Below are positions 4,166 to 59,345 of a DNA stretch of 64,000 nt, in pieces. The notes beneath the pieces were generated by a model. That model searched no databases. It was not told the origin of the DNA and was given only the letters and a program-made list of their open reading frames with translations. The position numbers and the translations under genes are program-made. The DNA comes from an uncultured bacterium (GTDB lineage: Bacteria; Acidobacteriota; Thermoanaerobaculia; Multivoradales; J023): contig CBDUGP010000038.1 of NCBI GenBank assembly GCA_965366625.1, positions 4,239-68,238 on the forward strand. Reading direction: 5' to 3'. Each line of letters starts with the position of its first letter. The first letter of the stretch is position 1.

Positions 4166-4270
4166 CTGTCTGAGTGCTGAGTAGCTGTCTAAATGCTGAG
4201 TAGCTGTCTGAGTGCTGAGTAATAGTAGCCGTCGGCGAATGTCGGCGAATGTCGGCGGCAATGTCGGCGC
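4108..4270. repeat. Compound tandem-repeat array at the TrmH 3' end / convergent gene junction: 15-bp unit x2 (4108-4137), 19-bp unit gctgtctgagtgctgagta x4 (4146-4221), 10-12-bp unit gtcggcgaat x3.5 (4231-4270)
   Basis: Perfect and near-perfect direct copies visible in sequence; TrmH stop codon lies inside first 19-mer. Confidence 0.9.
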
Positions 4271-4292
4271 GCCGACCCAGAACAGAGGCGGT

Positions 4293-19128: not shown

Positions 19129-19479
19129 TTAAGGGGCCGCGGAGCCTTCCGCGTGCAGGGCAGCGTCGAGATCGGGATAGGTCGGAAAGAGTCCGTCGAT
19201 CTGGGCGACCTTGAGCAGCTTGCAGATGCGATCCGAAGGTGAAACCAGGATCAGCTTTCGGTCGCGCTCGGCGAAGCGGGAAAGGTATCCCACCAGCTCG
19301 CCGATTCCCGTCGAATCGATGTAGTTGATCTTCGACAGATCCAAGAGCACATGCCCTTCATCTCTTTCTAAGGTTCGTTCTAGGCTCTGAACCAAAAACT
19401 CGGCGCTTTGGCCGAGCTTAATGATGCCTTCCACGCTCAAGAGCACCATCTCGTCCACTCGTCGCTTGTCGATGATCAC
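19129..19479 (-). CDS. STAS-domain anti-sigma-factor antagonist (SpoIIAA-like)
   Basis: 'LDLSKINYIDSTGIGELV' with conserved phosphorylatable Ser/Thr context; 116 aa. Confidence 0.85.
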   Translation of the reverse strand: MIIDKRRVDEMVLLSVEGIIKLGQSAEFLVQSLERTLERDEGHVLLDLSKINYIDSTGIGELVGYLSRFAERDRKLILVSPSDRICKLLKVAQIDGLFPTYPDLDAALHAEGSAAP

Positions 19480-35930: not shown

Positions 35931-35982
35931 GGCCGAAGGTTTGCTCGGGAAAGATAGGCCGAAGGTTTGCTCGGGAAAGATA
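35931..35982. repeat. Perfect 26-bp direct repeat x2 (ggccgaaggtttgctcgggaaagata) upstream of the NUDIX gene
   Basis: Visible in sequence. Confidence 0.9.
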
Positions 35983-36936: not shown

Positions 36937-39687
36937 CTATTGAATTAGAATTTCGAGTCGTGAACCCAAGGCCTTTAGATCTCGAATCGAGCTTCCCGAC
37001 TTGGACAGATCAAAGACCAGGCGAAGTTCTTGGCCGGGATGAAAGCCGAGCCGAATTCTCTTCAGCTCGTCGGTACCTACCGCAATCTCGCTTTTCGGGA
37101 AATTTTCCACGCCCAAGAGCGAGACCATCTCTCGATCGGCAGCCCAGGCCAAAGGATCATGGCGAAAGTCGTCGTTTGAGAACGAATCCGAGAATTGGAT
37201 CGTAATCCGGGTTCCTTGAGAGCTACGGCTCCAATCAATACCGGTTACAGCGCGGGCGCCGCCAATTGCCTGTGCCTGAGCAGCCCGATCCCGGTTTGGC
37301 GGTGGGGTCGGCGGAGGTACCGTCGCAGTCGCCGGCTCGATAGCAGGCGAAGACGTTTGACGCGCCGGTTCGTCAAACGCGGGAGCCACGACTTCAGGGG
37401 CAGTCTCAGTGATCGAGCCCCCAGGGTCGAGACCGGTCTCAGAACCGCTGTCGATCTCCGGCTCTGCCCCAACTTCAATCATTTCTTCTTGAAGCAGATC
37501 TTCCTCTCCGGTGGATTCGGCTTCGGCCCCAGAGGGGTCGACGGCGGGAGCGGGCTGGTGCTTCGGCGCCTTTCTGTTGCCTGCCTGGGCCACTACCTGA
37601 GAGTCGCTGCCGCTGCTCAATCCGACTAAGCTGGAAAGGGTGGCGCGGAAGAAATACACCCCAGCGACCAGCGCCGCCACGAGGCCCAGAGCAATGAGGT
37701 ACCGCCCAGCGCCTTTGCGGGGGGGAGGAGCAAAATCCTCACCTTCGGTCATCCAAGAATCGTCTTCTTGATCCGAATCCGGCCAGGGATCCACGAAATC
37801 AGCAGTGTGTGAGATCGGAGGCGGAGCCCCTCCAGCAGGGTCGGATGTCGAATCGGCAGGGTGGGTGCTGAAGAGAGAGCTGCCCGATGACCCGTCGTCT
37901 GTCGCCGAACTCAGAGGCTCCGACGGAGCAGCCGAGGCCCCTTGAGGTTCCGCGACCCCTTGGGGAACTCCCAATTCGCTTACCTTCTCAAAGGACGGTG
38001 AATCGAAAGACGAAGAATCGAAAGACGGTGAATCGAAAGAAGCCGCCTCGAAAGAAGGAGCTGCCGTGGCGACCTCCTCCCTCGGCGACTGCTCTGAGGT
38101 CGTCGCCGGAGTCGAGTCTGAGCTAAAGGACGATAGGGACGCGGTAGGAAGTACGTCGGTGCTCTCGGGAACCGCAGCGGCATCAAATTCAGACGACCCA
38201 GCAGAAGCATCATCGAATGACGGTGCTGCCGGCGGCTCAAAAGCCGGCATCTCGGCCGTCGGCTCGAAGGTCGGCATCTCGGCCGTCGGCTCGACATCGA
38301 ATGAGGGTTGGTCGAAGCTCGTTGGTGGCTCCCCCATCGAGGCACCTTTGCCGAACGAGATTTCCGCCGTGGGCTCAATGTCTGCCGTGGGCCCAATGTC
38401 TGCCGTGGGCTCAATGTCTGTTGGGCCCGCAGGGCTTTCCGAGCCTGCCAGGCCGCCGGGTCCGACAGGTGCCTCAAACGCAGGCGCTTCAAAACCAGGC
38501 TCGTCGGTCTCTGCTGAGCTGCCGACCAGGCTGAGTTGAGAGTCTGGGGCAAGGGTTGCGGGACCTGGATCAAAGGATATTTCCTCCGGCGGAGGGTCAA
38601 AATCGATCACCGGGTCTTCCAGCTCCACCGTGGCCTCGACCTCGTCCGCAGCCTCCATCATGCTGTCTTCGAGAGAAATTTCGCGCTTGTCAGGTGTCCC
38701 GGAGGCAGCACCTTGGGCCGGCGGATCCATGCTTGGAGCTTCGGCCGCCAAGAATAGTTCTGGCGCGGGATCCGCGGGCGGCGTTGAGAGAGGCAGAACT
38801 CCTTGGTGAGCTTGATTGGAACCTATCAAGGTCGGCTCCTCGGCGGAAATGTCTTCGAGTTTGAATTGTGTATCTGGACTCGAAGCCAAATGCGGCTTGG
38901 GAGTGCTCGAAGGAACTTTCTCCTCGATCGGAGGTGCCACCGGAGTCAATACTTGATTCGAGGAGACGGGTGGAACCGAAGGTGCGGCCGGCTCGGACGC
39001 GGCCGGCTCGGGGGCGGTCTGCTCAGATGCCGCAGCCGGAATCGTCGGGCGAATGGTATTGACCGCCTTTTCGACTTCTGGATCCGACTCCTCTGCCAGT
39101 AGGTCCCGCGGAACGCCCGGGAGCTTTTTGCCCCAGGGGGCGTCGAATCCCAATTGGGCTTGCTTCTGAACCGGAAGTTCTGCGGGGTTGGGCAAGCTCG
39201 GATTGACCTCTTGGACCGAAGTTCCCACCAACGTCGGCTCTTCCTCGCCCAGGGGATCGGGATTCACCGACATTTCCGAATCCGCAGAGATTCCACCCTC
39301 AGCAACTCTGTCCACCTCGAACGGAGGACCTCCTGCTTTCACCTGTTCCTCAAGCAACTTGAGCACCAGCTGGCGACCACTTTCGTCGATGGCCGTAAAT
39401 CGAACCCCCATGCCGGCCGGAGAATCCGGACCGAGGTCGTTGGGACGTTGCCACACCACAACCCCTTGTCCATGCAAGAGTCGGAAGCCGTCGGTCAACT
39501 TGAATTCGAAATGGACCTCAGTGCCGATCGGCCGAGGACGGTGAGTCTTAATGAAAACGCCGCCTAAGGAAATGCCGGCCCGATACTCTTCAACGAACGA
39601 AGAGAATTTCTCGAATCGAAGGGTGACATGTCCTTCCGGAGGAATCTGGCGGCGGAAAGAACCTGTTTCGTTGGGGCCGTCGGTCAT
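36937..39687 (-). CDS. PilZ domain - disordered repeat region - TM helix - C-terminal AMIN domain protein
   Basis: PilZ 'RRQIPPEGHVTLRF...AGISLGGVFIKT'; TM 'GRYLIALGLVAALVAGVYFF'; C-terminal 'RITIQFSDSF...RLVFDLSKSGSSIRDL' AMIN-like; repeat peptides DIEPTA x3, PTAEMP(T/A)FE x2, SFDSPSFDSSSFDSPSF. Confidence 0.75.
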   Translation of the reverse strand: MTDGPNETGSFRRQIPPEGHVTLRFEKFSSFVEEYRAGISLGGVFIKTHRPRPIGTEVHFEFKLTDGFRLLHGQGVVVWQRPNDLGPDSPAGMGVRFTAIDESGRQLVLKLLEEQVKAGGPPFEVDRVAEGGISADSEMSVNPDPLGEEEPTLVGTSVQEVNPSLPNPAELPVQKQAQLGFDAPWGKKLPGVPRDLLAEESDPEVEKAVNTIRPTIPAAASEQTAPEPAASEPAAPSVPPVSSNQVLTPVAPPIEEKVPSSTPKPHLASSPDTQFKLEDISAEEPTLIGSNQAHQGVLPLSTPPADPAPELFLAAEAPSMDPPAQGAASGTPDKREISLEDSMMEAADEVEATVELEDPVIDFDPPPEEISFDPGPATLAPDSQLSLVGSSAETDEPGFEAPAFEAPVGPGGLAGSESPAGPTDIEPTADIGPTADIEPTAEISFGKGASMGEPPTSFDQPSFDVEPTAEMPTFEPTAEMPAFEPPAAPSFDDASAGSSEFDAAAVPESTDVLPTASLSSFSSDSTPATTSEQSPREEVATAAPSFEAASFDSPSFDSSSFDSPSFEKVSELGVPQGVAEPQGASAAPSEPLSSATDDGSSGSSLFSTHPADSTSDPAGGAPPPISHTADFVDPWPDSDQEDDSWMTEGEDFAPPPRKGAGRYLIALGLVAALVAGVYFFRATLSSLVGLSSGSDSQVVAQAGNRKAPKHQPAPAVDPSGAEAESTGEEDLLQEEMIEVGAEPEIDSGSETGLDPGGSITETAPEVVAPAFDEPARQTSSPAIEPATATVPPPTPPPNRDRAAQAQAIGGARAVTGIDWSRSSQGTRITIQFSDSFSNDDFRHDPLAWAADREMVSLLGVENFPKSEIAVGTDELKRIRLGFHPGQELRLVFDLSKSGSSIRDLKALGSRLEILIQ

Positions 39688-40064
39688 CTTTGAATTCGCT
39701 GGCTCCGGCTTCCGGGGCTAATGTGAATGGCTCACGTCAGCAATTGGAGGCCATGGGTTTTATTTCACCTGCTGCCTAGTAGGCGGGTGTGCTTTGAGCG
39801 GCAGTCTATCGCAAAGGAAAGTTTTGCTCACGTGCGTAGAATGGATTGGCTCGTGGGCACGTAAATATGCATCAGGTCGAGATTCTGGGCAAAATCTCGG
39901 CCGATCGAAAATGGACCCACGAGCGACCCACGCCGTCCGCGACTTGCCCGCAAACCGATGAAAGAGTGACTCGGTGCCGAGCCCGGTGGACCGCCCAACT
40001 TGTTGAGCATCCGCCGACCCTGGGCTACCATGCAAATGTGAGCAGCCGAACCGACCGCCGAACC

Positions 40065-41387
40065 ATGGACGAGCTGATTCTCCTGCCCGAGGATCAGGCG
40101 ATTCACGCATTCTTCGACGATTTGGATCGAATCGTGTTGTTGCGACTTTTGGTCGTGGTGGCAGTGGCTTCGGTGGCCGGCATAGTCGCGCTGCTGGTCG
40201 AGGGCTCCCCTCTTTGGCTGACCCTGCCCGCGCTTGCCCTGATTCTTGTGCGGGTCATCTTCTCAGCCTCGCGCCAAGCCTACTTCGAGCGTCACTTTCG
40301 TCCGATACTGTTGGCATATCTATTGCTGCACGGAATCGGCATCCGACTCTTTATGATGCTCAAGTGGCCCGACTTCTATTTGGTTCTCGATTATTTGCTA
40401 CCCCTGGTCCTGATCTTTTTCTGTCTGCGCCAGCTTCACCTCTTCTTGTTGCTCGGGCCGATGTGGGGAATCTCCGCGGGCCGTGACCTTGTTTCAGCGC
40501 TGATGGGTGCTTCGGAAGTTCAGGTCTTGCCGCTGATCGCAGTCAGCACGGTTTGCTTGGTGGTGTTTTTTTGGGTCGGCCGACAAACCCGGAAGCGACG
40601 CCGGGACTTCCTGTTGGTTTGGCGCCGGGAGCACCAAAGGCATCGCGAACGTCATCGAATGCAAGGGGAATTGGATGAGGCGCGCAGGATCCAGCTCAGC
40701 ATGCTGCCGCGCAGCGATCCGTCCCATCGCTTTTTCGACATCGCGGGTATCTCGATTCCAGCCAGTGAGGTAGGCGGCGACTACTACGAGTATTTTCAGT
40801 CCGGAATCGATCGCCAAGCGGTGGTCATCGCCGATGTCGCAGGACACGGTGTGGCCAGCGGTCTGCTGTTGGCGGGCGTTCGCAGCTGCCTCTATTTGCT
40901 CAAGGACTCACCCCACCGGCCGGTCGAAGTGTTGGAAAAGTTGGATCGCGTGGTTCGAGAGACCACCGGCCGACGCGAATTTGTGACCATGCTCTACGCC
41001 CTCTTCGATCCCCAACGGGGTGAGGTCAGCCTGGCATCCGCCGGTCATCCGCCGCTGCTCAGATACGTGGCTGCGACCGGCCAAGTAGAAGAAGCGGCCT
41101 TCTGCTCCCTGCCTCTCGGCACCCGATTGCGCCAGAGCCTAGAGGAAGTCCAAGTGCCCTATGCCACCGATGACATTTTCTTGCTCTACACGGACGGGAT
41201 CGCAGAGACGGTCAACAGCAAAGGTGATCTCTACGGCAACGAGCGGCTGTCTGGGCGCCTGAAGGCGACCGCTCACGACCGGACCGCAAAAGAGATTCGA
41301 GACACCCTTCTCGGAGATGTTTGGAGCTTCAAGGCGGACGGTGAGCAAACCGACGACATCACCCTCGTGGTCGTCAAGGTTCGCTGA
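40065..41387 (+). CDS. Membrane-anchored PP2C-type Ser/Thr phosphatase (SpoIIE/RsbU family)
   Basis: 'IPASEVGGDYYEYF', 'IADVAGHGVASGLL', 'LYTDGIAE', 'DDITLVVVKV'; N-terminal 5-6 TM segments; start at MDELILL. Confidence 0.85.
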   Translation: MDELILLPEDQAIHAFFDDLDRIVLLRLLVVVAVASVAGIVALLVEGSPLWLTLPALALILVRVIFSASRQAYFERHFRPILLAYLLLHGIGIRLFMMLKWPDFYLVLDYLLPLVLIFFCLRQLHLFLLLGPMWGISAGRDLVSALMGASEVQVLPLIAVSTVCLVVFFWVGRQTRKRRRDFLLVWRREHQRHRERHRMQGELDEARRIQLSMLPRSDPSHRFFDIAGISIPASEVGGDYYEYFQSGIDRQAVVIADVAGHGVASGLLLAGVRSCLYLLKDSPHRPVEVLEKLDRVVRETTGRREFVTMLYALFDPQRGEVSLASAGHPPLLRYVAATGQVEEAAFCSLPLGTRLRQSLEEVQVPYATDDIFLLYTDGIAETVNSKGDLYGNERLSGRLKATAHDRTAKEIRDTLLGDVWSFKADGEQTDDITLVVVKVR

Positions 41388-41403: not shown

Positions 41404-41467
41404 GAGCGGCACCGGCAAGGAGCGGCACCGGCAAGGAGCGGCACCGGCAAGGAGCGGCACAGGCAAG
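41404..41467. repeat. 16-bp tandem repeat gagcggcaccggcaag x4 immediately downstream of the phosphatase stop
   Basis: Visible in sequence; last copy has one substitution. Confidence 0.9.
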
Positions 41468-41599: not shown

Positions 41600-41676
41600 G
41601 TGGTACCCCCAACGGGATTCGAACCCGTGTCGCCAGCTTGAAAGGCTGGTGTCCTAACCTGGCTAGACGATAGGGG
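41600..41676 (-). tRNA. tRNA-Glu (anticodon UUC), CCA encoded
   Basis: Reverse complement folds as cloverleaf: acceptor gccccta/tgggggt, anticodon stem ccagc/gctgg with loop cTTTCaa, T-arm acggg-ttcgaat-cccgt, 3' CCA. Confidence 0.85.
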
Positions 41677-41813
41677 CACGCAAAACGTGCCGGCCGGGCG
41701 GGTGTGCTCACCTCCGCGGCGGACGCGCAATGTAGCACAGAGCCGGTTTGTTTTCCAAGAGGTAATTTCAAGTCGAGTCTTCCGAAGTCCATTCAGCCGC
41801 CAATTGCCCCGAT

Positions 41814-43739
41814 TCAAGATCCGAACAATCCAAAGGCGAGTCGCGCCAACTGCCCTAGTCCCAAAGCCAAAACGCATGGCCACACACTAAGGGCCCGCTC
41901 CCGAATACCGCCCAAGGAGAGTCCGGTGAGCAGGGAGCCACCGATCATCAACGGCCAATGCCAAGCCTCGGGAACCTCAAAACCGTGAGGCGAGATCCAC
42001 AGCAGGGAGAGGCCGCAAGTGGCGGCGGCAAAGAAGGCGGCGGCATAGAAATTTGGCCGCGAGATGAACCACCTGCCGCCGGCGGTCTGAACCGGGTGGT
42101 CGAGGATCAGCAAACCGTGAACAAGGCCGCGAAATCCGAGTTCAACCGCCAGGGCGATGAGCAAAGAGGCGATAACCGTGACCCCCAGAGCCCCCCGGTC
42201 GGCGGGCAGCTCGGCTGGAATCCAGGCACCACCTGCTACAGCGCCGATCAGGACCAGGGGCACTAGGAACCACCAGTCGATACCCGCAGGGCGACGCCAG
42301 CCGTAGAGCCACATCCATCCCCTAGACACTTGGCGGGTCAATAGCCAGGCAGCCAAGCTCACGACCAACGCCGCCGCCCCCATTTCCATGGCGAGGCCTT
42401 GGGGAGTCGCCGCCGACATCTCTAGATTCCGCAGCCCCACTACGCTGACTCCTCCCACCAGCGCCAGGACCAAGATCCAAAGGGCCGAAGTGGCCAGTCG
42501 TTGAAGATGTTGAACGGGACGGACTTTTTTATAAGTCAGCTTGAGGATCTTAGCGATCTCACGTGCGGACAAGCCGGTTCCCGTTGGACGCGGGGAGCCG
42601 CCGATGTCGTCGGAGCCCCCCCATCGTTTGGAAGCCGGCCGACCATCCACCGCAGGGTCTAAGAGATTCAACTTGTTGTAAGCCGATTCAAGCTCAATGC
42701 CCGACAACGCAGCCACCCGGCGCAAGGTGTAGTGATTACGGTCTTTCTGCAAGGCGACGATACCCAAGCGATCGCCCCAGACTTTCTTGAGACGTTTTTC
42801 TACATCGTAGATTCCGCCGTCGTCCCGGCAAACTACCGCCACCTTGCCTTGGCCGATCTCCACATGGCCGTATTCTTTGTCGATGCTCGAATAGTCTTGA
42901 AAGTCGGAGCCACGAAAAACGAGCTTGTCGATTTCCAACAACATCTCGCGGGTATAACCCGCCAAGTCCTTGGTGCCCCAGGTGCCCGTAGCTTTGCTTT
43001 CTAGCTCGATGGCGTGAAGGGCGTCCAATCGCTCCATTTCTACCGCCAAGGCCGCCTGCGGTAGTCCGCACAGCTCGGCGATTTCCAGGCCGTTGGCGTC
43101 GATCGCGCCTTCCAAGCGAATCAAAGGAATAATGCGATCCCGAGTTTCTGGGCTCAGATTTCGCAAGCGCCGGTGGTTGAGCAAGATCCAAATGGCAAAA
43201 ACCGTGTCGAGGTCCGGCTCGTTGGCATAGACCGTCCAGTCGCCGACATCCAGCTCCAGGCCCTTGCACACCAAGATCAGTGCTTGTTCGCAGGTGGCCA
43301 AGGTGAAAGCGCGAGAGCAGCCCTGATGGTGATCGAGATTGAAGAGGTGGGCATTGTCGTCGACCAGCGGCGCGAAGGCGCCGGCGCCGTCCAGCAAAAT
43401 GGAGCGGGCAGGCAGCTTGCGGGCCTCCGCTTCCGAGAAGCTAAAGGAGCGGTTGAGGTGGACGGCAATGCCCGGTGCTTCTCGGCAGACCAAAGCCGGG
43501 CCGGTGTCCTTCTCCCGAATGTCGTAGCGGTCGGGAATATCTTCGGGGCCCTTTTCGAGCCCTGCCAATACGCCGATGTGACTGCTGTCGAAGGGCACCA
43601 AACCGCCCCGGGGTGAGCCCTTTTTGGAAGTGGACACGATGCTCCCGCCGGCTTTTGATGGAACATCCGACTGGCCTTCCACATCGGCATGGCTACTGTC
43701 GGTCGGGTCTTGGGAGTCCGATTCTCTCAATGGCATCAC
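41814..43739 (-). CDS. Fusion of a DHH-family-like phosphoesterase domain (possibly degenerate) and a CPBP (CAAX/Abi) intramembrane glutamic protease domain
   Basis: 'LLDGAG', 'NLDHHQG' (DHH motif III), 'WGGSDDIGGSP' (motif IV-like); C-terminal TM bundle with CPBP motifs 'AVELGFRGLVHG' (EExxxR-like) and 'FAAATCGLSLL...PHG'. Confidence 0.65.
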   Translation of the reverse strand: MMPLRESDSQDPTDSSHADVEGQSDVPSKAGGSIVSTSKKGSPRGGLVPFDSSHIGVLAGLEKGPEDIPDRYDIREKDTGPALVCREAPGIAVHLNRSFSFSEAEARKLPARSILLDGAGAFAPLVDDNAHLFNLDHHQGCSRAFTLATCEQALILVCKGLELDVGDWTVYANEPDLDTVFAIWILLNHRRLRNLSPETRDRIIPLIRLEGAIDANGLEIAELCGLPQAALAVEMERLDALHAIELESKATGTWGTKDLAGYTREMLLEIDKLVFRGSDFQDYSSIDKEYGHVEIGQGKVAVVCRDDGGIYDVEKRLKKVWGDRLGIVALQKDRNHYTLRRVAALSGIELESAYNKLNLLDPAVDGRPASKRWGGSDDIGGSPRPTGTGLSAREIAKILKLTYKKVRPVQHLQRLATSALWILVLALVGGVSVVGLRNLEMSAATPQGLAMEMGAAALVVSLAAWLLTRQVSRGWMWLYGWRRPAGIDWWFLVPLVLIGAVAGGAWIPAELPADRGALGVTVIASLLIALAVELGFRGLVHGLLILDHPVQTAGGRWFISRPNFYAAAFFAAATCGLSLLWISPHGFEVPEAWHWPLMIGGSLLTGLSLGGIRERALSVWPCVLALGLGQLARLAFGLFGS

Positions 43740-47849: not shown

Positions 47850-49985
47850 TCAGGGGTGGTCGGCGTTTGCCAACGCAGGATGGAGCAAGATGTGGGTCTG
47901 ATCCACTTCGAGTCCCGGCAAGCTTTGCGCGAGGCCGTCGGGCCACCGAGCCTCGATCCCCAATACCTCGGTCTCGGTTCCTAAGCCAAATGTAAGGATC
48001 GTCTCCGACTGGGATAAATATCCCCGGGTCGGTGTGACCTCTTGCCGCTGACGCCCGGCCGCGGTCAGGATTTCAACCTGGGCTCCGAAAGCCCAAGGGT
48101 TTGGCTCGGGAGCCTCCAGCCGAAGCCGAATCCAATGACCGTCACTTTGCAGCCGGCGGGCCAGGTGCTCGCGATCCAGCTCATTGCGCAAAATAGTGGG
48201 CCGGCCGGAAGGCTGGGTCAGGACGAGGTCCAAATCACCGTCGCCGTCCAGGTCAGCGAAGGCGGCACCTCGTCCAGCCCTCGGTTTGGCGAGATCTCCT
48301 AAAACATCGACATCGGCCGGCTTGAACTTACCGTCGCCCTCGCCCCAAAGGAGCTGAGCGGGTTGACGATAGCTTTGGGAAGGGTCCAAGTCGGCAATTT
48401 GATCCTCCACATGACCGTTGATCTGCAGCAGGTCGAGCCGCCCATCGAGGTCGACGTCGAGTAGCAGCACGCCAAACGTGAGCACATCGCGGCTGGCGGG
48501 TCCCAATCCCGAAGCTGCCGACTCGTCGACGAAGAATTCTCCCCCACTGTCGCCGACATAGAGGGAACTCGTCTCCTGGGAGAAGTTGCCGACCAGGAGA
48601 ATCGGCCGGAGTATGGGTTGATTATGACGCGGCTGCTGAATAGACGGTTGCTGAATAGGCTGGGCGGGTCTGCGCAGGAAGCCGCTATCCAAACCCATGG
48701 AGCCGGTCGCTTTGCCGCCCGCATCATAAGCCAGGCCCACCCACTCCCCCACTTCTTCGAAGCCGCGGCCGGCCCCGCGGTTGCGGAACAGAAAATTGGC
48801 GGTGGTGTCGTTGGCCACCCACAGGTCCGTCCAGCCATCGCCGTCGATGTCGCTGGGTTTGACCGCAAGGGCTTTTCCGGTCGGCTCGGCCCCCGGGTCC
48901 TTGGGCACCCAAATACCGAACTCCTTGCCAACGTCTTCAAACCGCCCCTGACCGTCGTTCAGGAACAGCCGGGAGTGGGTGCCGCTGTATTCCTGAGGTG
49001 GCGCGTAGGCCCGTCCGATACCTTCGACGTGAAAATTGAGCTGTCGTTCAATGGCCGGTGACCAGCTGACGTAATGGCAGACGAAAAGATCTAGATCTTG
49101 GTCTCCGTCCGCATCGAAGAAAGTCGCACCCGTCGACCATGAATTGGAATCGTCGGCCAGACCCGAGCTGTCGGTGATCTCGACGAAAAATCCACCGTCG
49201 TTGCGAAAGAGCCGAGAACCACCGACCGCCGAGATGAATAGGTCCAAGTCATGATCACCGTCGATATCGCCCACCGCCGGGCCCATTCCATAGAGGGTTA
49301 CGTTCAGCCCCGACTCACGGGTGACGTCCTCGAAACGGCCTGTGCCGTCATTGCGAAAAAGCCCGAGCGAAGCCCGAGGCTCACTCGCTGTGCCGGCGAA
49401 GGCCGACCACGAGCTGCCACCGACGAAAAGCAGATCCGGATCGCCGTCTTGGTCTAAGAGATCGACGAAGGCCACGCCCCCGCCCATGGTTTCCGGCAGT
49501 AGCTTCTCTCCCGCGGCCCCATTGCGAAACTCGAAGTCGATACCCGCTTCAAGGGTGATGTCCGTGAACAAACCCCGCGGGATGACCTCAGCAACGGACG
49601 AGTCCGTCTCGGACGAAAGGGGAAGCACTTTCGCTTCGGAACCCACCGGTGTCGTGGACTCCAAGGGATTTACCCGGCTCACCGACTCCGGTACCGACAT
49701 CGAGGGTGTATCGATGCTCGACTCGAGCACAGGCGATCGATCAAAACCGTAATCGGCCGCCTGCAGGAGCCCAGGGTTTTCGGATGCGATCTGGGCGTTA
49801 ATTGGCCACATCCAATGCAGGCTCAGGCCATATAGGCTCAGGCCATACAGGCTCAGGCCGCACAGAAGAAACGCGATCGGTCCACACCAAACCCATGCGG
49901 AGAGTTGGCCGCGCTTTCCATCTCGGGCAGCATCCATCGACGGGTCAGAGCGCCTAACGATGATCGGCCGATTCCGAGATCTCAT
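47850..49985 (-). CDS. CRTAC1-family protein (FG-GAP/VCBS beta-propeller + ASPIC/UnbV C-terminal domain)
   Basis: Repeated 'DxDGDGxxDL' FG-GAP loops ('DIDGDHDLDLFI','DADGDQDLDLFV','DIDGDGWTDLWV','DLDGDGDLDLVL'); C-terminal 'GYLSQSETILTFGLG' ASPIC motif; (LSLYG)x3 in signal peptide. Confidence 0.8.
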   Translation of the reverse strand: MRSRNRPIIVRRSDPSMDAARDGKRGQLSAWVWCGPIAFLLCGLSLYGLSLYGLSLHWMWPINAQIASENPGLLQAADYGFDRSPVLESSIDTPSMSVPESVSRVNPLESTTPVGSEAKVLPLSSETDSSVAEVIPRGLFTDITLEAGIDFEFRNGAAGEKLLPETMGGGVAFVDLLDQDGDPDLLFVGGSSWSAFAGTASEPRASLGLFRNDGTGRFEDVTRESGLNVTLYGMGPAVGDIDGDHDLDLFISAVGGSRLFRNDGGFFVEITDSSGLADDSNSWSTGATFFDADGDQDLDLFVCHYVSWSPAIERQLNFHVEGIGRAYAPPQEYSGTHSRLFLNDGQGRFEDVGKEFGIWVPKDPGAEPTGKALAVKPSDIDGDGWTDLWVANDTTANFLFRNRGAGRGFEEVGEWVGLAYDAGGKATGSMGLDSGFLRRPAQPIQQPSIQQPRHNQPILRPILLVGNFSQETSSLYVGDSGGEFFVDESAASGLGPASRDVLTFGVLLLDVDLDGRLDLLQINGHVEDQIADLDPSQSYRQPAQLLWGEGDGKFKPADVDVLGDLAKPRAGRGAAFADLDGDGDLDLVLTQPSGRPTILRNELDREHLARRLQSDGHWIRLRLEAPEPNPWAFGAQVEILTAAGRQRQEVTPTRGYLSQSETILTFGLGTETEVLGIEARWPDGLAQSLPGLEVDQTHILLHPALANADHP

Positions 49986-50009: not shown

Positions 50010-53000
50010 TCAAGGTGAACTCGCAGCTCCCACGGCCCCCGCCCCACCCTTTGCCGAATCTGCGGTCTGCGCCGTCTGAGCAGGCACCGGAATTTCGTCG
50101 GCGTCGGCGCCGAAGGGGCCATTCACCAGCAGCTCGAAGGGTTCGGAGCGGCGCACGGACGGATCGGTTTCGAACTCAAAGGCTCCAGGCCTCTGAAGGT
50201 CGTAAAGCACGATGGCTTCAGCTGCGTGGTTGGCGGCTGGATCGGCAGCCCGAGCCACGGCAACCGCTTGGTCTCTGGCGTTATCGTCGATTTTGTACTT
50301 TTGGTAGAGTTCGAAATGCTCCGTCGCTTGCTGCTCGTTACCCAGCTCCTTATGCAACAAATATAAGTTGTAGTGGGCTGAGACGTGCTCCGGATCGAGG
50401 CCGAGCACACGCTCGAACATCACTTTTGCTTTTCCGATCAGCTCCAGCTTTTGGGGCTGGCGCTGCTCGCCTCTCTCCTGCCGGGCCCGCTCGTAAAGGG
50501 TCTGCCCTAGCTCCGCCAACACCCGATAGTCCTGGGAGAAATCGAATCCGCGACGCCGGGTTTCGGCGTCGTCGAGGTTCAGAATGTTCTCGAAGTTGGC
50601 GATCGCCTCGTCTAGGAAGCCGTTCTGCTTGTTGACCAAACCGGTGAACCAGGCCACGGTCCATGCGGGAGAGGCGGGCGACCCTGAAATCGGGTGAGCT
50701 TTTGACGCCCGCTCCAATGCTTGGATGGCTTGGTCTTGCACGGTTCCTTGGGCAAAGTACACCCGAGCCAAGTTGAGCGCGCCTTCCGTCCGCCCGAGCT
50801 GCTCCACCTGGGTGAAGGCGTGCTCCGCTTGTTTCAGCTCACCTTTCGATTTGCCACCCTTGCGCAGGAGACCGATGCCGTAATCGTTCCAGCGCATCCA
50901 AGGGTCGGCGGTGGCCGGCAAGGGATTGTCCAACGGTCCGTGAGCGAAGCCTTCCACAGGGAACGTGATCCGATCCTCGGCCAAGGTCAAAATCGGCAGA
51001 TCGTTGACCCATTTCGGATTGTCTTCCACCAGAGCCATATAGGTCGTGTCGAATTTGCGGTATTGCAAACGGGCTTCTACCCGAACCGGCCCTACGACCC
51101 CTTCAGGAACGGAGAACTTGAAGTGCACCGAGTCCGCCGCACCGGGAGGAATCTGGTGGTTGTAGAGGGCGACGAAGATATCTTCGGCGTTCCTACGATC
51201 GATCCGGCGACCGTGACGATCCAGAACATAGGCGTTGACGAAATGGGACCATGGATCGACCCGATTCTGCTCCCCCAATCCCCCGATTCGGCCGATCGTA
51301 CGAACTCCGTCGGAAAATTCGGCGATCATGCGGACATCGAGCCAAACCTGATTCGAGTCGGCGGTCCCTTGGGTAAAGAGATGGCCCATCTTGGCGGTGC
51401 GAATCACGATGTCGAGCAGATAGTCCTGACCCGGCCGCAGCTCGGGCACCGACGGCCGAAGCGGAGCGATTGGGGTGGCGTCGATGGTGCCACCCTCTTT
51501 CAAGGCGAAAATGTCCAGACGCATCACGTCCCGATTGAACTCAGCTTGCCGTTGGTTGACCCATTCCGGCATGCCGAGCAGCTTGGGGATGGCGGTATTG
51601 GCACTCGCGAATTGATGGTCGTGGACTTTCAGGGAGCCGTCACCATCGAAATCTTGGGCGCCGAATTGCTCCGAAGGCCGTCGGGGCATGTGGCAGCCAT
51701 TGCAATTCTCTTGCGCCGCGGGTGGGTAATAGAAGCTGGTCACCCCGTGGCCGGACACGCCCGACAAATGGTAAGCATCGTAGTGATTCTGGCCCCGCAG
51801 CCATTTGTAATTGTTCAGCTCTTCAGGCAGGTGAACTTTGTGGCAGCTGCCGCAGAATTCCGGGGTCTTGTGCAGGGGTTTCAAGAATGTGCGCTTGTGG
51901 AATTCCGGCTTGGCCTTCACCAACTGTTGGTTGAGCCATTGCAAGGACTCCGACTCCGAGCCGGCGAAGGGATAGTGGGTGGGCTCCTCGATGGTGTAGT
52001 CGGAATTGCCACGCACCGAATTCACGTGGGTAATGGCGTGGCAAACGGTGCAGGTAATGCCGGCCTGGCCGGCCGGGTCGTTGACGTCGTCGAAATCCGG
52101 ATCGTCGAATTTGCCGCTGAAGAAAACCACTGGATCATGACAGCCGGCGCAAAAACGGGACGCTTGCACATTGCCGTCGCGAGCCTCAGCCATCCGACGT
52201 GTTCCATCCACGGAAAATTTATAGGGTGGGTTGTTGAACGAGCTGAAGCGGTGCATGGAAACCGCCCAGGTTTCATGGCTGTCCTCGTGGCATTTCTGGC
52301 AATACTGGTCGTTCATGAGAACTTCTTCGGGGATGAAATCACCGGTCGCCGTGCGGGATAACGACGGGAAGAAATATTGCTCCCCAGATTTTGGTCCCTC
52401 GACGTTCCATTGACGGGGATCCTGGGCCTGCCAAACCACCATGATCGCGGCGAAAACCGCTGCCACCACTGCCCATCGGCGTCCTACCTGCCATTTGATC
52501 TTCTTGCCGGCCAAGCGATGCAGCACAAATAGCCAGCCCGCGAGCAGAGGCGTGATCACATGTATCCAATATGCGATCGAGCGAGTGGTGGGATCCTTCA
52601 CCACGATGACCCCTTCGAGCCGGGTCAGCACCACCCCCGACACCAACAGCAAGATCACCATCACAAAGAGGGCGTAACCGGCCTTGACCGCCCGCCGATT
52701 ACGGCGGTCGTAGGTGTTGTACATGTGGATGAAGCCGAAGATCAGGGCGGGCAGCAGAATTAGGACGCCGAGCACCAAGTGGACCAAGAACATGTTCATG
52801 TAGAACCAGTTCTGAAACGTCTTGCCGGTGGTGCTTTCGAGGATCGATACCCCGATCAGGTAGGTCGAGTTAATGGCCAGGAGGGCAAAGAGCCCGAAAA
52901 CCAGGCTCAGGACCCGTTGCAGCTTGGGGCCGACCGCCTTCTTGTACCGTCTTTTCTTGGGAGCCGGCGTCTTGGTGGGTTCGGCGGGTTTCGACTGAGA

Positions 53001-53015
53001 ATTTTCGGTGCTCAT
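50010..53015 (-). CDS. Membrane-anchored multihaem c-type cytochrome (5 CxxCH) with C-terminal TPR repeats
   Basis: CQKCH, CAGCH, CTVCH, CGSCH, CNGCH; N-terminal 4 TM helices; C-terminal TPR-like 'AHYNLYLLHKELGNEQQATEHFELYQKY'. Confidence 0.8.
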   Translation of the reverse strand: MSTENSQSKPAEPTKTPAPKKRRYKKAVGPKLQRVLSLVFGLFALLAINSTYLIGVSILESTTGKTFQNWFYMNMFLVHLVLGVLILLPALIFGFIHMYNTYDRRNRRAVKAGYALFVMVILLLVSGVVLTRLEGVIVVKDPTTRSIAYWIHVITPLLAGWLFVLHRLAGKKIKWQVGRRWAVVAAVFAAIMVVWQAQDPRQWNVEGPKSGEQYFFPSLSRTATGDFIPEEVLMNDQYCQKCHEDSHETWAVSMHRFSSFNNPPYKFSVDGTRRMAEARDGNVQASRFCAGCHDPVVFFSGKFDDPDFDDVNDPAGQAGITCTVCHAITHVNSVRGNSDYTIEEPTHYPFAGSESESLQWLNQQLVKAKPEFHKRTFLKPLHKTPEFCGSCHKVHLPEELNNYKWLRGQNHYDAYHLSGVSGHGVTSFYYPPAAQENCNGCHMPRRPSEQFGAQDFDGDGSLKVHDHQFASANTAIPKLLGMPEWVNQRQAEFNRDVMRLDIFALKEGGTIDATPIAPLRPSVPELRPGQDYLLDIVIRTAKMGHLFTQGTADSNQVWLDVRMIAEFSDGVRTIGRIGGLGEQNRVDPWSHFVNAYVLDRHGRRIDRRNAEDIFVALYNHQIPPGAADSVHFKFSVPEGVVGPVRVEARLQYRKFDTTYMALVEDNPKWVNDLPILTLAEDRITFPVEGFAHGPLDNPLPATADPWMRWNDYGIGLLRKGGKSKGELKQAEHAFTQVEQLGRTEGALNLARVYFAQGTVQDQAIQALERASKAHPISGSPASPAWTVAWFTGLVNKQNGFLDEAIANFENILNLDDAETRRRGFDFSQDYRVLAELGQTLYERARQERGEQRQPQKLELIGKAKVMFERVLGLDPEHVSAHYNLYLLHKELGNEQQATEHFELYQKYKIDDNARDQAVAVARAADPAANHAAEAIVLYDLQRPGAFEFETDPSVRRSEPFELLVNGPFGADADEIPVPAQTAQTADSAKGGAGAVGAASSP

Positions 53016-53184
53016 GAATCGCTAATCTCGATGCCTAAAGGCGTCAATGGCTAGGTAGGTAGGGTTGGAAACCCCATTTGGAACCAACGAAGCGCCTATC
53101 TTACCCGGTCATCGGTCCGATGGCTGTCAGAATTTACCGCCAGCCAGAACCTACGGCAAGCCAGGACATACCGCCGGCCAGGAT

Positions 53185-54591
53185 CTACCGCGGGCCAGGA
53201 CCTACGGGCACCGTTGCCGCGGGATCGCCCAATATGATGTGGGATCGGGCGTCGCAGTAGGCGGACCAAAGCTCGAGAAGCTCCAAGGATTCGAAATCGC
53301 CGTCGCCCGCTCCCAGGCTTTCGGCCACCAGACGGGTGGCGAGTTCGGCGTGCCGTTGGGCAAAGGCTTCCATGGCCAAACCCACCGGAAGCCCCTTGAG
53401 CAGCTGGCTCAGAACCTCGCCAAAGCAATGGGCTTGACCGTCCTCAAAACCACCGAAGCTGTGGCTCGGCATGGCCCGGTCGACGTGGGCGATCACCGCG
53501 CCGGCTCCGCCCGCCGGGTGGCTCAACAGCCGCTGGGGCAGACGGGCCACGAACGGATCGTTCGCGAGCAGCCTGCGCTCCCCTCGCCGGTCCTTGCCGG
53601 GAGCGCCGAAGGTGTCCAATCTGGGAGTGCCGGCCGTATGGCAACCGAATAGGACGAAAATCCTGCCCGCCAAAGAGGCGTTGTCGGGTACATCGGAGGC
53701 GGCAAAGTAGTGTTTGGAATAGGCGGGCCCGGTGCCCGGCCAATCCGCACAGACGATCGCCCCTTGGCAAGGGCGAAGGCGGGCGTTCTCGGGTTTGAAG
53801 AGGGCGGCATGGCCAATGGTCATCACCACCTGTGAGCTGCCGTCGGTGAGGCTGCGGCTCAACCTCTCTTTGGTGGCGGCCCGGCCATCGAAGCGCCGAG
53901 AGCGAATGCCTTGATGGTTGAGAGCCCGTTCCAACGGGTCGACGAGGGCGCGTCTAGCGGTGTCCGTGGCGGGATCGAGCCCTTGGTTTTCAGGGCCATG
54001 TCCGACCGAAAAGAGATCGAGATCGTAGGTCCGGCGAGTCGCCCGCTTCTCCGCCTCGATCAGCCCTTGGGCATAACGGGCGTAAGCCTCCGGCGAGGGC
54101 AATTCCAACCGGCCGGTGGCGTATTGCAGGTCGAGATCGAATTGAAATCCATGGGGAATCTCTTCGGGGGAGCCCACCAACAACAAGTAGTAGGGCACCG
54201 TCGAGGGAACCACCGGCCCGGGTCCGGCGCGCAGTCGCGACAAAAAGGTGCCCGGCCCTTCCCGGGGCACGTACGTCAGGCGACGGAATAGTGGACCGAC
54301 CTGCTCGCGGCGCCAGTCCAGAAGCGGCTCCAAAGCCTCGACGATCGCTGGGTCGACGGAGCGATGAAAGACGGCTCCCCAGCCGGCCTGGCGCAAATCC
54401 GTGGGGTCGAGGTCGGCCCTCAGTCTGCGACTGCGGGCGATCACGGACTCGAGCCCACGCGGCGCCAGGTCGGGATAGAACGGCCGGCCGGTCTCGGCAT
54501 CCATGCCGAGAAACCGCAGGGCGATTCTGTCCTGCCCCGTTTGCAAACGGGGCACCTGACGGACGGCGGGCTCGAGGTCCTTAGTTTTCAT
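53185..54591 (-). CDS. Hypothetical protein; possible clan-CD-like cysteine peptidase (candidate His/Cys dyad)
   Basis: 'VVMTIGHAALF' ... 'RIFVLFGCHTAGT' His-then-Cys arrangement ~56 aa apart, 'YYLLLVGSPEEIP' block; no firm family assignment. Confidence 0.4.
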   Translation of the reverse strand: MKTKDLEPAVRQVPRLQTGQDRIALRFLGMDAETGRPFYPDLAPRGLESVIARSRRLRADLDPTDLRQAGWGAVFHRSVDPAIVEALEPLLDWRREQVGPLFRRLTYVPREGPGTFLSRLRAGPGPVVPSTVPYYLLLVGSPEEIPHGFQFDLDLQYATGRLELPSPEAYARYAQGLIEAEKRATRRTYDLDLFSVGHGPENQGLDPATDTARRALVDPLERALNHQGIRSRRFDGRAATKERLSRSLTDGSSQVVMTIGHAALFKPENARLRPCQGAIVCADWPGTGPAYSKHYFAASDVPDNASLAGRIFVLFGCHTAGTPRLDTFGAPGKDRRGERRLLANDPFVARLPQRLLSHPAGGAGAVIAHVDRAMPSHSFGGFEDGQAHCFGEVLSQLLKGLPVGLAMEAFAQRHAELATRLVAESLGAGDGDFESLELLELWSAYCDARSHIILGDPAATVPVGPGPR

Positions 54592-54880: not shown

Positions 54881-57772
54881 TCAGTGACGAAACGGCGGCC
54901 CACTAATCGATTTCGAAAAGGATAGAAACCGATCGCTGGAAAAGGTTCGTGCCGTGGAGGACTTTCTCGTAATCTCTCGTGGGCCACGACGAGCGGCGTT
55001 GAGATCACTGCTTTCCAGGACTTCGTTCCGGTGCATTGAGCCGTCGCCGATCAAGACGAAACCGGCCCAATACGCGGGGTCAGCCCAGGTGCCGCCGTCC
55101 AACATGGCCAGCTGGGCGGCGCGCAAGGCCTCGGCAGGCGCAAGCTCGAGGTCGATCAGCTGCCGATATAGCTCGATCATCAGCTCAGCGGTCGGCGCAT
55201 CGGCCACCTGCCAAAGGCTTGCCACCACCGACGCAGCACCCGCTTTGAGAAATCCCCGGGGCAAGGCCATCGTGCCCTCCCCCGCCAGAATCTCACCCAG
55301 GGCCGTGTCGCAGCCCGCCAGGCTGACCAAATCCGCCGACAAAGTCAGTCGATCCAAGTCCCCCAGGCGCAAGGATCCGTCGATCCGGCGACCCTTGGGA
55401 TCGACCCTCGACAGCTCGATGGCGGCGAGGTCCGGCGCTTCCGGATCGACCTGGGCGTGGGTGCCGAAATGCACGAATCGACTGGCGGCCAGGTGACCGC
55501 CCAAGACCCACTCCTTAGAAGCCGCGAGTCCGGTGCGCGGCTGGAAACCCCGCGCTCGGGCGATCGCGTTGGCTTCTACGCCGGAAGCCTCTAATCTCGG
55601 CAACTCTATGCTCCAAAAGTCTGACCTTGGTGAGCTGTCGGGGTTCGATCCGGCACTTCGCCGATCTCCGCGAGTGGCTCCCCCTCCTGCCTGAGGCCGG
55701 GGGCTGCGGGAGTCTTGGAAACCGTAGATGGGATCGGCCACCACCGTCAGCAAATTTCCTTGGCGGGACGCTCGCTCACGGGCTCGGCTGCGGATGGCCG
55801 CCACCGTGGACACGGAATAGGAAAGGCTGATCGGATGGTCGCGCAGCATTGGATGCCCTTCTTTTCCCGGTTTCGGCAGCACCGCAAAGGGCACCGTGGC
55901 CAATGCACCCTCGACCACAATCGATAGGGGGCGCCCCGGCCGCAAGCGGTCGACTACCGGGCCCAGCAGCGCTTCGGACAGGGCTCGGGCTTCGGCGTCG
56001 GAGCGGGAACGAGCCGCAGGACCTTGGGCCAAGTACCGGAGCAGGGCTCCGGCCGCAGCTTCGAGATCCTCGCCAGGGGGCAAGCCGTCGTGCAATTGGA
56101 AATCATCCCGATCGACCGACCAAAGCAAGCTGCGCTCGGCGCCGGGCCAATAGACCAACATCAATACGTCGGGTCCCAATAGCTCCTGCGTGGCTTTCAG
56201 GTCTAGGCTCGGTGCCCCTTCCGCCCCGGCAACCCGACGCATTTCCGCTTCCAGGCCCGCCAAAGTCAGCCTTAGCTCCTTCGCTCGGGTCAGCGCGACC
56301 GTCGGGCTGACGCCCATGCCTATGCTGTCGTCCATGTTCGCGTCGCCGGAGGCCGAGCCCTCTCGGTCGAGAGGCCCCAATTCGAGGATCTTCAGAGCTG
56401 CGTCCAACTCGGCACGAATGCCGTCCAGCCGGGCGCTGAACTCGGGTCCAGCGGCAGAGCGGATGGCATCGATCGGCCAGATCAAGTGGTCTAGAAGACT
56501 GCGGGCGCGGGCCAGCTCGGCCACCTCGAACGCTTCCCGTGCCCGTCCGCGGGCGGCGAGGGAAAGTACGAATAGGTCGAGCATGTGTCGTCGGCGAGCG
56601 AAGAACGGTAACAACAACTCCCCTTGGCCCGAGGTCCTCAGGGCCTCAAAAGTGCCCAAGAACCATTCCATCGACACGTCCATCTGCGGCCACAGGCCCA
56701 GGGCCTCGAAGGCCTGGGCTTGCACGTGCAGGTTGTGCAAGCTCAGGTTTGGATCCCCTAGACCCGCCTGTCTGGCGATCCGGGCCGACCGGCGGCTGGT
56801 TCGTATGGCCGACTCAGGATTTCCGAGTCGGAGCCACGCGTCCGCTTGGTTGCCGATCGCGTGGGCCCGATTGAGGGGATTTTGGGCGTCCTTCGCCGCG
56901 CGTCCGAAGAACTCCAGGGCCGCCTCGGCTCGTCCAGCTGCCAGGTGAAGGATTCCCAAGGCGTCCAGCCCGGGTACTTCGGAAAGGGAGGCCGAACGGC
57001 GCATTTCCATGGCTTCTTCGAGCACTTCGGAAGCGGATTCCAGCTTGCCTTGCTCGGTGAGTAATCTGCCGCTCCAGGTGAGGCAAATGGAAATGGCCAA
57101 CCGGCCGCTATTTGACGATCCCAGAGCCCGTAACCGATCACAGGCTTGGTCCAAGGTCTGGCGCGCCGCGCGCCATCGACCCATGCGCAGGTAGAGAATG
57201 CCCACATTCAAATGGGAATTGGCCCACTCCGAGACCTCACCGAGATGCCGCCACAACAGCCGTGCCCCCGCCAGGTGCTCCAAGGCCTGACGCAGATGCT
57301 GTCGTCGGCTTTCGAGCAGGGCCAGATCATTGAGCAGACCGGCCACCGACCGAGCGGAACCGACCCGGAAGGCGGATTCCAGGGCTTGCAAATAAGCGTG
57401 GCTCGCCGCGGACGGATCGCGTTCGGCCCAAAGGTCGCCCAGCAGGCCGAGCAGAGTTGCGCGCCCGCATCCGAGCTGGTCGCGTTCGAGCTGCTCGGCC
57501 ACCGACGAGATATCTCTTCCCAGCTTTTTGAGAGTGGCCGCCGGCACCGCCGCCTTCGCCGATCGAACGGCCTCTATCCGTTCCAGCAGCGGGGTCACCC
57601 GTGGGTCCTCAGGCTGCCCCGCACAGGGCTGATCGGGGGCATCCAGAAGCATCAAGACTTCCGGCGCCACCGCTTCGGGACTGACGGGAATCGGCTCTCG
57701 GGTATCGCAGCCCCAAAGAGCGAGGAGCGCGATCCAAAGGGCTGACCTGGCGACTGCCTGTGGATCGCCCAT
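54881..57772 (-). CDS. Lipoprotein with N-terminal TPR array and C-terminal CHAT (caspase-HetF-associated with TPRs) protease domain
   Basis: Lipobox 'LLALWGC'; many TPR-like helical repeats; CHAT dyad 'SRFVHFGTHAQVD' and 'LVSLAGCDTALG'. Confidence 0.85.
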   Translation of the reverse strand: MGDPQAVARSALWIALLALWGCDTREPIPVSPEAVAPEVLMLLDAPDQPCAGQPEDPRVTPLLERIEAVRSAKAAVPAATLKKLGRDISSVAEQLERDQLGCGRATLLGLLGDLWAERDPSAASHAYLQALESAFRVGSARSVAGLLNDLALLESRRQHLRQALEHLAGARLLWRHLGEVSEWANSHLNVGILYLRMGRWRAARQTLDQACDRLRALGSSNSGRLAISICLTWSGRLLTEQGKLESASEVLEEAMEMRRSASLSEVPGLDALGILHLAAGRAEAALEFFGRAAKDAQNPLNRAHAIGNQADAWLRLGNPESAIRTSRRSARIARQAGLGDPNLSLHNLHVQAQAFEALGLWPQMDVSMEWFLGTFEALRTSGQGELLLPFFARRRHMLDLFVLSLAARGRAREAFEVAELARARSLLDHLIWPIDAIRSAAGPEFSARLDGIRAELDAALKILELGPLDREGSASGDANMDDSIGMGVSPTVALTRAKELRLTLAGLEAEMRRVAGAEGAPSLDLKATQELLGPDVLMLVYWPGAERSLLWSVDRDDFQLHDGLPPGEDLEAAAGALLRYLAQGPAARSRSDAEARALSEALLGPVVDRLRPGRPLSIVVEGALATVPFAVLPKPGKEGHPMLRDHPISLSYSVSTVAAIRSRARERASRQGNLLTVVADPIYGFQDSRSPRPQAGGGATRGDRRSAGSNPDSSPRSDFWSIELPRLEASGVEANAIARARGFQPRTGLAASKEWVLGGHLAASRFVHFGTHAQVDPEAPDLAAIELSRVDPKGRRIDGSLRLGDLDRLTLSADLVSLAGCDTALGEILAGEGTMALPRGFLKAGAASVVASLWQVADAPTAELMIELYRQLIDLELAPAEALRAAQLAMLDGGTWADPAYWAGFVLIGDGSMHRNEVLESSDLNAARRGPREITRKSSTARTFSSDRFLSFSKSISGPPFRH

Positions 57773-57781
57773 GGCGGCCGA

Positions 57782-59226: not shown

Positions 59227-59345
59227 ATCCCGTCTCCAATCCAAAACTCTGGATTCGGTTTGGTATTCAGGGGTCAGAATAGCAGAAAAGTTTTTCCATC
59301 GTGCCCCTTGGAACGATTGGCTGAAGCACCTCAACCCTGCACCTG

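Follow-up and report, generated by a model that had tools for sequence, protein, structure and literature searches.

Results

A single-pass membrane protein with PilZ and AMIN domains

We analyzed a 64,000-nucleotide stretch of DNA from an uncultured bacterium of the Thermoanaerobaculia (phylum Acidobacteriota; contig CBDUGP010000038.1 of assembly GCA_965366625.1), which we refer to as the window. On its minus strand, which also holds all parts of the gene located below, positions 36937–39687 contain a complete coding sequence with an ATG start for a protein of 916 amino acids. The protein consists of a PilZ domain, an acidic disordered linker, a transmembrane helix, a periplasmic linker and an AMIN-fold domain. 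This architecture had been proposed in an earlier sequence-only reading, together with control of an envelope or septal process by cyclic di-GMP (c-di-GMP); profiles, hydropathy and fold models confirm the architecture. We conclude that the gene encodes a single-pass inner-membrane protein conserved in Acidobacteriota, and we argue below that it may serve as a wall-anchored scaffold rather than as a c-di-GMP sensor.

The 996-residue ortholog of a related metagenome-assembled genome (MAG) of the Thermoanaerobaculia (JAUIJL010000001, here L005) shares the N-terminal sequence exactly, Met1 included. The 916-residue protein itself was found in at least three further assemblies by an exact-sequence look-up, which finds identical proteins only, and its 90% cluster comprises its own sequence and one fragment. 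A hydropathy scan found one transmembrane helix with core residues 663–680, YLIALGLVAALVAGVYFF, encoded at 37648–37701. Three Lys or Arg residues lie just before this helix and one just after it, a bias that suggests a cytoplasmic N-terminus. From the single helix, this three-to-one bias and the cytoplasmic nature of PilZ domains, we infer that the AMIN domain lies on the periplasmic side. The earlier reading had described a low-complexity region of about 600 residues; the cytoplasmic linker in fact spans about 535 amino acids (residues 128–662; 37702–39306), and a further 129 amino acids (residues 681–809; 37261–37647) lie in the periplasm between the helix and the AMIN domain. This second linker is disordered, rich in Ala, Pro and Glu, and has an isoelectric point (pI) of about 4; in the family its median length is about 100–110 amino acids.

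Loss of c-di-GMP motifs in the PilZ domain

The N-terminal domain (residues 12–118; 39334–39654) matches the Pfam PilZ profile PF07238 over residues 12–113 with E 2.6e-9 and 37.8 bits, above the gathering cutoff of 22.5, as the sequence-only reading had led us to expect. It also matches TIGR02266 in NCBIfam over residues 20–112, with 72.8 bits against a curated cutoff of 68.7. The AlphaFold2 (AF2) model of the domain, with a predicted local distance difference test score (pLDDT) of 85.5, has a strand at residues 20–25, a helix at 28–35, four more strands and a C-terminal helix at 102–118, i.e., five strands compared with the six-stranded β-barrel plus C-terminal helix by which PilZ domains are recognized.

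PilZ domains bind c-di-GMP through an RxxxR motif before the first strand and a [D/N]hSxxG motif. RxxxR is absent from the protein: its segment SFRRQIPPE aligns with RDSRRVPLE of motif-bearing relatives, and both arginines are replaced. What is left of the loop is SFRRQIPP (residues 10–17; 39637–39660), as judged from this alignment and from family statistics. The segment RRQIPPEG, formerly taken for the upstream arginine motif, thus contains no RxxxR. The second motif, formerly recognized in ISLGGVFI, survives in part as GISLGG (residues 38–43; 39559–39576), where the hydrophobic residue, the serine and the glycine are kept, with S40 present in 95/99 and G43 in 96/99 family members, but the D/N position is Gly. 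Across the clade to which the protein belongs (see below) this position is variable, and members without the motifs often have Phe, Tyr, Trp or Leu there. Mutation of a single arginine of RxxxR abolishes c-di-GMP binding in YcgR and CdbS (PMC10313047). In PA2989, which binds c-di-GMP, the D/N position is taken by Ser (10.1101/814665).

Structure comparison led to a particular group of PilZ proteins. With a profile of 25 N-terminal domains (A2), the only PDB matches were the Xanthomonas PilZ proteins XC1028/XAC1133 (E 1e-4 to 1e-3), and these also made up the top 11 Foldseek matches of the model (E 4e-6 to 9e-5); the c-di-GMP binders MapZ, YcgR and Alg44 ranked far lower (E 0.18–0.8). XC1028/XAC1133 lack both motifs, have the second strand turned into a helix and do not bind c-di-GMP (Galperin and Chou, 10.1101/814665), but act through binding of FimX and PilB (10.1101/814665). 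In XAC1133, Trp69 is needed for PilB binding, its mutation destabilizes the PilB complex, and together with F28 it lines the hydrophobic pocket for PilB; a free C-terminal motif V, ending in Met117, is required as well (PMC8389850). In our alignment, Trp79 of the protein, present in 98/99 family members, corresponds to Trp69, and the D/N column (Gly38) corresponds to F28, whereas the FimX-contact residues F49 and L51 of XAC1133 align with His and Glu.

By alignment, the c-di-GMP-binding residues are thus lost in this protein. The label of a c-di-GMP receptor does not fit it, with RxxxR absent, Gly at the D/N position and non-binding Xanthomonas PilZ proteins as closest structures, and c-di-GMP-dependent control of an envelope or septal process, as suggested earlier, is unsupported for it.

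Motif-bearing and motif-less members of the family

An exhaustive HMMER search of 50%-identity representatives with the AMIN profile gave 1448 representatives at E <= 1e-3 and 809 at E <= 1e-10. Among the best 150 and the first 30 matches, whose architecture we surveyed, at least 99 clusters combine PilZ, a transmembrane helix and a C-terminal AMIN domain; most remaining proteins were fragments. Both nucleotide motifs are kept in 28 of these 99. For the 28, the medians are 524 amino acids for length, 158 amino acids for the cytoplasmic linker and -9 for net charge, so that their linkers are short and nearly neutral, and none of them contains the linear motif FxAPWG described below. Neither motif is found in 49 of the 99, for which the medians are 752 amino acids, 371 amino acids and -65; FxAPWG occurs in 32 of these 49.

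In a neighbor-joining tree built on the PilZ domain, with canonical-motif TIGR02266 proteins of myxobacteria as the outgroup, the motif-bearing members branch near the root, and the motif-less ones form a single derived clade that contains the protein studied here. RxxxR is absent throughout this clade. The family probably descends from a true c-di-GMP receptor, and the derived clade appears to have swapped nucleotide binding for protein–protein interaction motifs. The idea of a c-di-GMP receptor, unsupported for this protein, probably applies to the sister group of the same architecture, where both motifs are present.

Public records label the members only as 'PilZ domain-containing' or 'TIGR02266 family'. 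In the literature searched, including PilZ surveys and the paper defining AMIN, the PilZ–AMIN combination is undescribed (10.1101/814665, PMC2572700), and for TIGR02266 we found nothing relevant.

An AMIN fold at the C-terminus

The C-terminal domain (residues 810–916; 36940–37260) carries an RIR...LVFDL signature. The sequence-only reading had called it AMIN-like. Pfam AMIN (PF11741) did not match the full protein or its 262-residue C-terminal part, and the isolated 110-residue domain scored 14.9 bits, below the gathering cutoff of 20.5. Sixteen of 24 relatives gave weak Pfam AMIN matches (best E 3e-4). When the C-terminal ~107 residues of 24 homologs are aligned (A1), T17, R70, V82 and D84 (domain numbering) are invariant, and the A1 profile matches residues 209–300 of Myxococcus xanthus PilQ with E 8.9e-6 and residues 21–105 of AmiC with E 0.3. 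The AF2 model (pLDDT 96.1) has nine β-strands. Its top Foldseek matches are AmiC (4bin), M. xanthus PilQ (3jc8) and the B2 domain of Neisseria meningitidis PilQ (4aqz/4av2), with probability 1.0 and template-modeling (TM) scores of 0.68–0.73, but with no E-value better than 1.9e-3. On fold and profile we accept the domain as AMIN, albeit without a score that reaches the curated Pfam threshold; the earlier assignment stands with this qualification.

AMIN is a wall-localizing module with an all-β fold of about eight strands (PMC2572700). The AMIN domains of PilQ are reported to be linked to septal or polar peptidoglycan (PMC10653833, PMC5285504).

We also observed a second architecture with the same AMIN subtype, in which a signal peptide or transmembrane helix is followed by two AMIN copies and PilZ is missing. 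These proteins are 300–430 amino acids long with copies about 100 residues apart (P0053, P0067, P0070, P0075, P0077, P0081, P0093 and others), and they could be periplasmic partners of the PilZ–AMIN proteins or competitors for the same wall sites.

Linear motifs and tandem repeats in the acidic linker

The cytoplasmic linker is acidic and disordered. Pro, Ser and Ala abound in residues 136–658, for which the pI is 4.05 and the net charge -82. Of the 23 Phe residues of the linker, 16 are followed by Asp or Glu. The pattern [PAS][STAG]F[DE] occurs 11 times against 0.7 expected, a count that 0/2000 shuffles reached. An acidic-aromatic unit, (S/A)F(D/E)xP, recurs about 16 times in the linker and takes in most of the Phe–Asp/Glu sites.

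Beyond this recurring unit, three linear motifs stand out. GGxPFE(V/I)D (residues 119–127; 39307–39333) directly follows the C-terminal helix of the PilZ domain, with G119 kept in 86/99, P122 in 79/99 and F123 in 83/99 members. EEPTL(I/V)G is found in 13 of the 24 closest relatives, often twice, and in the protein itself as EEPTLVG (residues 149–155; 39223–39243) and EEPTLIG (residues 283–289; 38821–38841; EPTLMG in L005). The longest, FDAPWGKKLPGVPRDLLAEE (residues 181–200; 39088–39147), has 20 residues, and its family consensus is FDAPWGxxLPExPxE/DxLEE, with invariant A, P, W, G, L and P. This FDAPWG motif is present in 42/99 family members, all within or near the motif-less clade. A search with a 44-residue alignment found it in no other protein family at E <= 10, and a six-frame translation found it nowhere else in the window.

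The three in-frame tandem repeats of 18, 27 and 15 bp noticed earlier were all recovered by Tandem Repeats Finder, in frame. An 18-bp array of 3.1 copies (38366–38420) encodes DIEPTA-DIGPTA-DIEPTA, a 27-bp array of 2.5 copies (38228–38294) encodes EPTAEMPTF-EPTAEMPAF, and a 15/30-bp array (37987–38055) encodes SFEAASFDSPSFDSSSFDSPSFE, a series of SF(D/E)xP units; in the latter, 2.7 copies of 15 bp at 38000–38040, encoding SFDSP, lie within 2.3 copies of 30 bp. These arrays are local multiplications of (S/A)F(D/E)xP-type units.

Tandem arrays are about fourfold enriched in the gene relative to the window, an enrichment that is not unique to this gene. About 18 distinct short arrays (10–34 bp) occur in the 64 kb, which is unusually frequent; they lie within and between genes, e.g., at 2985–3040, 4146–4221, 17230–17296, 35931–35982 and 53135–53205, and several are 92–100% identical. 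Their abundance looks like a genome-wide tendency to slippage rather than a feature of a single gene.

Selection on the domains and the FDAPWG motif

Compared with its L005 ortholog, the protein is conserved at both ends. The PilZ domain of L005 is 95% identical over the first 128 residues, and conservation is likewise high in the AMIN domain, whereas the linker is highly divergent with many indels. L005 lacks the 18-bp DIEPTA array and instead carries 15-bp PSFE/PSFD arrays of 5.5, 4.6 and 3.1 copies, in which the SF(D/E)xP unit of the 15/30-bp array is expanded. The suggestion that repeat copy number may vary is hence borne out between related species.

Ratios of nonsynonymous to synonymous substitution (dN/dS) between the two genes are 0.02 for PilZ, 0.03 for the segment with the FDAPWG motif and 0.05 for AMIN, compared with 0.2–0.3 for the linkers, at saturated synonymous sites and with an uncertain linker alignment. 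PilZ, the FDAPWG motif and AMIN are under strong purifying selection, and from the low dN/dS we conclude that both domains are functional.

Gene neighborhood and other features of the window

A membrane-anchored SpoIIE/PP2C phosphatase gene (39846–41387, plus strand) lies divergently to the PilZ–AMIN gene. Downstream lies a gene for an HTH_3 regulator, with a promoter-like site of its own and a strong terminator; the other flanking genes encode NUDIX, acyltransferase, methyltransferase and radical-SAM proteins. The order of divergent SpoIIE, PilZ–AMIN, HTH_3, acyltransferase, methyltransferase and radical SAM is common to three related loci (L003, L004 and L005) only and was absent in four others (L001, L002, L014 and L015). 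We read this order, common to close relatives, as a sign of shared ancestry and not as an operon. The neighborhood yielded no hint of function. Rfam models found nothing in the flanking intergenic regions except a tRNA gene (41604–41677, minus strand, 64.7 bits).

Several observations concern the surroundings. The listed TTG start of the SpoIIE phosphatase (513 amino acids) is probably too far upstream, as the orthologs have 449–452 amino acids; its divergent arrangement recurs in L003, L004 and L005. A STAS-domain protein is encoded at 19129–19479 (minus strand), and together with the phosphatase suggests partner-switching signaling. Just downstream of the phosphatase gene lies an array of four 16-bp copies (x4.0, 97% match; 41404–41467), followed by the tRNA gene. 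L003 has a separate PilZ protein of 230 amino acids (3800–4492) about 3.5 kb upstream of its PilZ–AMIN gene; no such gene was seen adjoining the PilZ–AMIN gene in the window.

Elsewhere in the window, all on the minus strand, an 854-residue protein (13760–16324) combines TIR_2 (residues 241–328) with SLOG cluster2 (residues 538–746), a pairing typical of nucleotide-signaling conflict or defense systems. A same-strand run at 54881–62500 encodes a TPR-CHAT protein (963 amino acids), a 281-residue open reading frame (ORF) without Pfam match, an ECF-type sigma factor (236 amino acids), a caspase-family Peptidase_C14 protein (657 amino acids) and a CsgG/LpoB-like lipoprotein (394 amino acids), and looks like a protease-based signaling or conflict module. 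A 641-residue ORF (41814–43739) has no Pfam match at E <= 1e-3 and is multi-pass hydrophobic in its C-terminal third; its ELGFRGL stretch we take to resemble the first motif of CPBP/CAAX proteases. A 1001-residue protein with a weak match to multiheme Cytochrome_C554 (50010–53015) adjoins a 711-residue FG-GAP/ASPIC-UnbV protein (47850–49985).

Discussion

A wall-anchored scaffold as the preferred reading

Both domains of the protein are well known, and what appears to be new is their combination across the inner membrane. We propose, with a probability of about 0.5, that the protein is a peptidoglycan-anchored cytoplasmic scaffold, similar to FimV/HubP in design, rather than a c-di-GMP sensor. 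By analogy with the AMIN domains of PilQ and AmiC, its AMIN domain would bind peptidoglycan, possibly at septal or polar sites, and would thereby fix the protein at defined sites of the envelope. On the cytoplasmic side, partner proteins would be drawn to these sites by docking onto the PilZ-like domain and the linker motifs. The protein might thus act as a wall-anchored scaffold or landmark.

Several points weigh against this proposal. Resemblance to XAC1133 alone is no proof of non-binding; as the motif-bearing members share the same TIGR02266-type sequence pattern, the argument for non-binding rests on the lost residues. The hSxxG part is conserved, and so are R81, R96 and R105, such that the PilZ domain may bind a nucleotide in a non-canonical way. 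The tree that orders motif loss carries no support values, and the isolated AMIN domain scores below the Pfam cutoff. Moreover, the genes around family members differ from one part of the family to another and point to no particular recruited machine; in the window, no type IV pilus, divisome or c-di-GMP-turnover genes were found (38/41 longest-rule ORFs scanned).

If the protein were a working c-di-GMP receptor, cytoplasmic nucleotide binding would control an envelope or septal process via an AMIN-anchored protein. The Pfam PilZ match lies above its cutoff, hSxxG is kept with S40 and G43 nearly invariant, the domain is under very strong purifying selection, and the 28 of 99 proteins that keep both RxxxR and [D/N] plausibly bind c-di-GMP; PA2989 binds it with a Ser in place of D/N. 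Nonetheless, both RxxxR arginines are missing in the protein and its whole clade (one such mutation suffices to abolish binding in YcgR and CdbS), the D/N position is Gly, and the nearest solved structures are those of the non-binding XC1028/XAC1133. We consider this explanation unlikely. The same structures raise another possibility, a tether specific to type IV pili: a PilB-type assembly ATPase, bound at its N-terminal domain by the XAC1133-like PilZ domain, would be kept next to the AMIN-bearing PilQ at septal or polar wall sites marked by AMIN. The PilB-contact Trp is almost invariant, and the Phe, Tyr, Trp or Leu at the D/N position in several clade members falls on the F28 site of the PilB pocket. 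This tryptophan, however, is shared by motif-bearing members and the myxobacterial outgroup and may be structural. The free end required by XAC1133 is not available either, since about 790 residues follow here, beginning with GGxPFE, the FimX contacts are replaced, and neither the window nor any inspected locus has pil genes in the vicinity of the gene. A pilus tether is hence in our judgment similarly improbable.

That the reading frame has no function, either as a long ORF arisen by chance or as a decaying gene with a meaningless middle, would agree with the low-complexity, poorly conserved and indel-rich central 60% of the protein. It is refuted by conservation, and we regard it as barely credible: at least 99 clusters have the same architecture, dN/dS is 0.02–0.05 in both terminal domains and the linear motif, both domains give confident fold models, and the frame is intact over 916 codons, and over 996 in the ortholog.

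The scaffold proposal can be extended to a tentative history of the family, rather unlikely in its full detail. An ancestral PilZ–transmembrane–AMIN c-di-GMP receptor would have become a peptidoglycan-anchored hub in an acidobacterial lineage, losing the nucleotide site and gaining a long acidic region with the putative docking motif FDAPWGxxLPExPxE/DxLEE and SF(D/E)xP arrays of variable copy number. Such a hub would mark division sites or poles in Thermoanaerobaculia, as a functional equivalent of FimV/HubP without homology to them; alternatively, the motif might occupy the former c-di-GMP site in cis. The family is a natural before-and-after series, with an intact c-di-GMP site on one side and a lost site, the motif and an expanded acidic linker on the other. 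It offers a system for asking how second-messenger receptors turn into pure scaffolds and how Acidobacteriota, whose cell biology is to our knowledge almost unknown, mark positions on their cell wall. For annotation, it teaches that a Pfam PilZ match here should not imply c-di-GMP binding.

Comparison with known systems

XAC1133/XC1028 and Pseudomonas aeruginosa PilZ (PA2960) are the eponymous PilZ adaptors that do not bind c-di-GMP. Like XAC1133/XC1028, the protein lacks RxxxR and conserves the equivalent of W69, and its AF2 model resembles them in showing the second strand replaced by a helix. Adaptors of the XAC1133 type are stand-alone proteins of about 117 amino acids, whereas here the PilZ domain forms the N-terminus of a 916-residue membrane protein. 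It also differs from XAC1133 in keeping the hSxxG remnant, in lacking the FimX-contact residues and nearby pil genes, and in having GGxPFE(V/I)D after the helix instead of a free motif V.

TIGR02266 denotes a paralogous domain that is related to PilZ and is known best from Myxococcota. The most distant matches of the full-length search were myxobacterial proteins of this family that have a transmembrane helix. Unlike the protein studied here, they keep RxxxR and DxSxGG, and they end in a DNPY tail with no C-terminal AMIN domain. The TIGR02266 model covers the N-terminal domain only and not the whole architecture.

At the other end, the AMIN domain resembles those of PilQ and AmiC in profile, fold and RxR...VFDL signature. 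Known AMIN proteins are secreted or outer-membrane proteins, such as amidases, secretins and TonB receptors (PMC2572700). In contrast to these architectures, an inner-membrane protein here carries AMIN at its periplasmic end and a signaling-type domain in the cytoplasm.

In overall design the protein comes closest to FimV/HubP, which are reported to join a peptidoglycan-binding domain in the periplasm, through a transmembrane region, to an acidic cytoplasmic region and an interaction domain (PMC12918733). The likeness covers the presumed peptidoglycan-binding domain on the periplasmic side, the single transmembrane helix, the long and acidic cytoplasmic region with its repeats and varying length, and a putative protein-interaction domain at the end. 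The proteins are not homologous, and the likeness is one of design only: Pfam gave PilZ alone, with neither LysM nor the FimV tetratricopeptide (TPR) domain found in the protein. AMIN stands in place of LysM and PilZ in place of the TPR 'FimV' domain, and the orientation is inverted relative to FimV/HubP, with the cytoplasmic part at the N-terminus.

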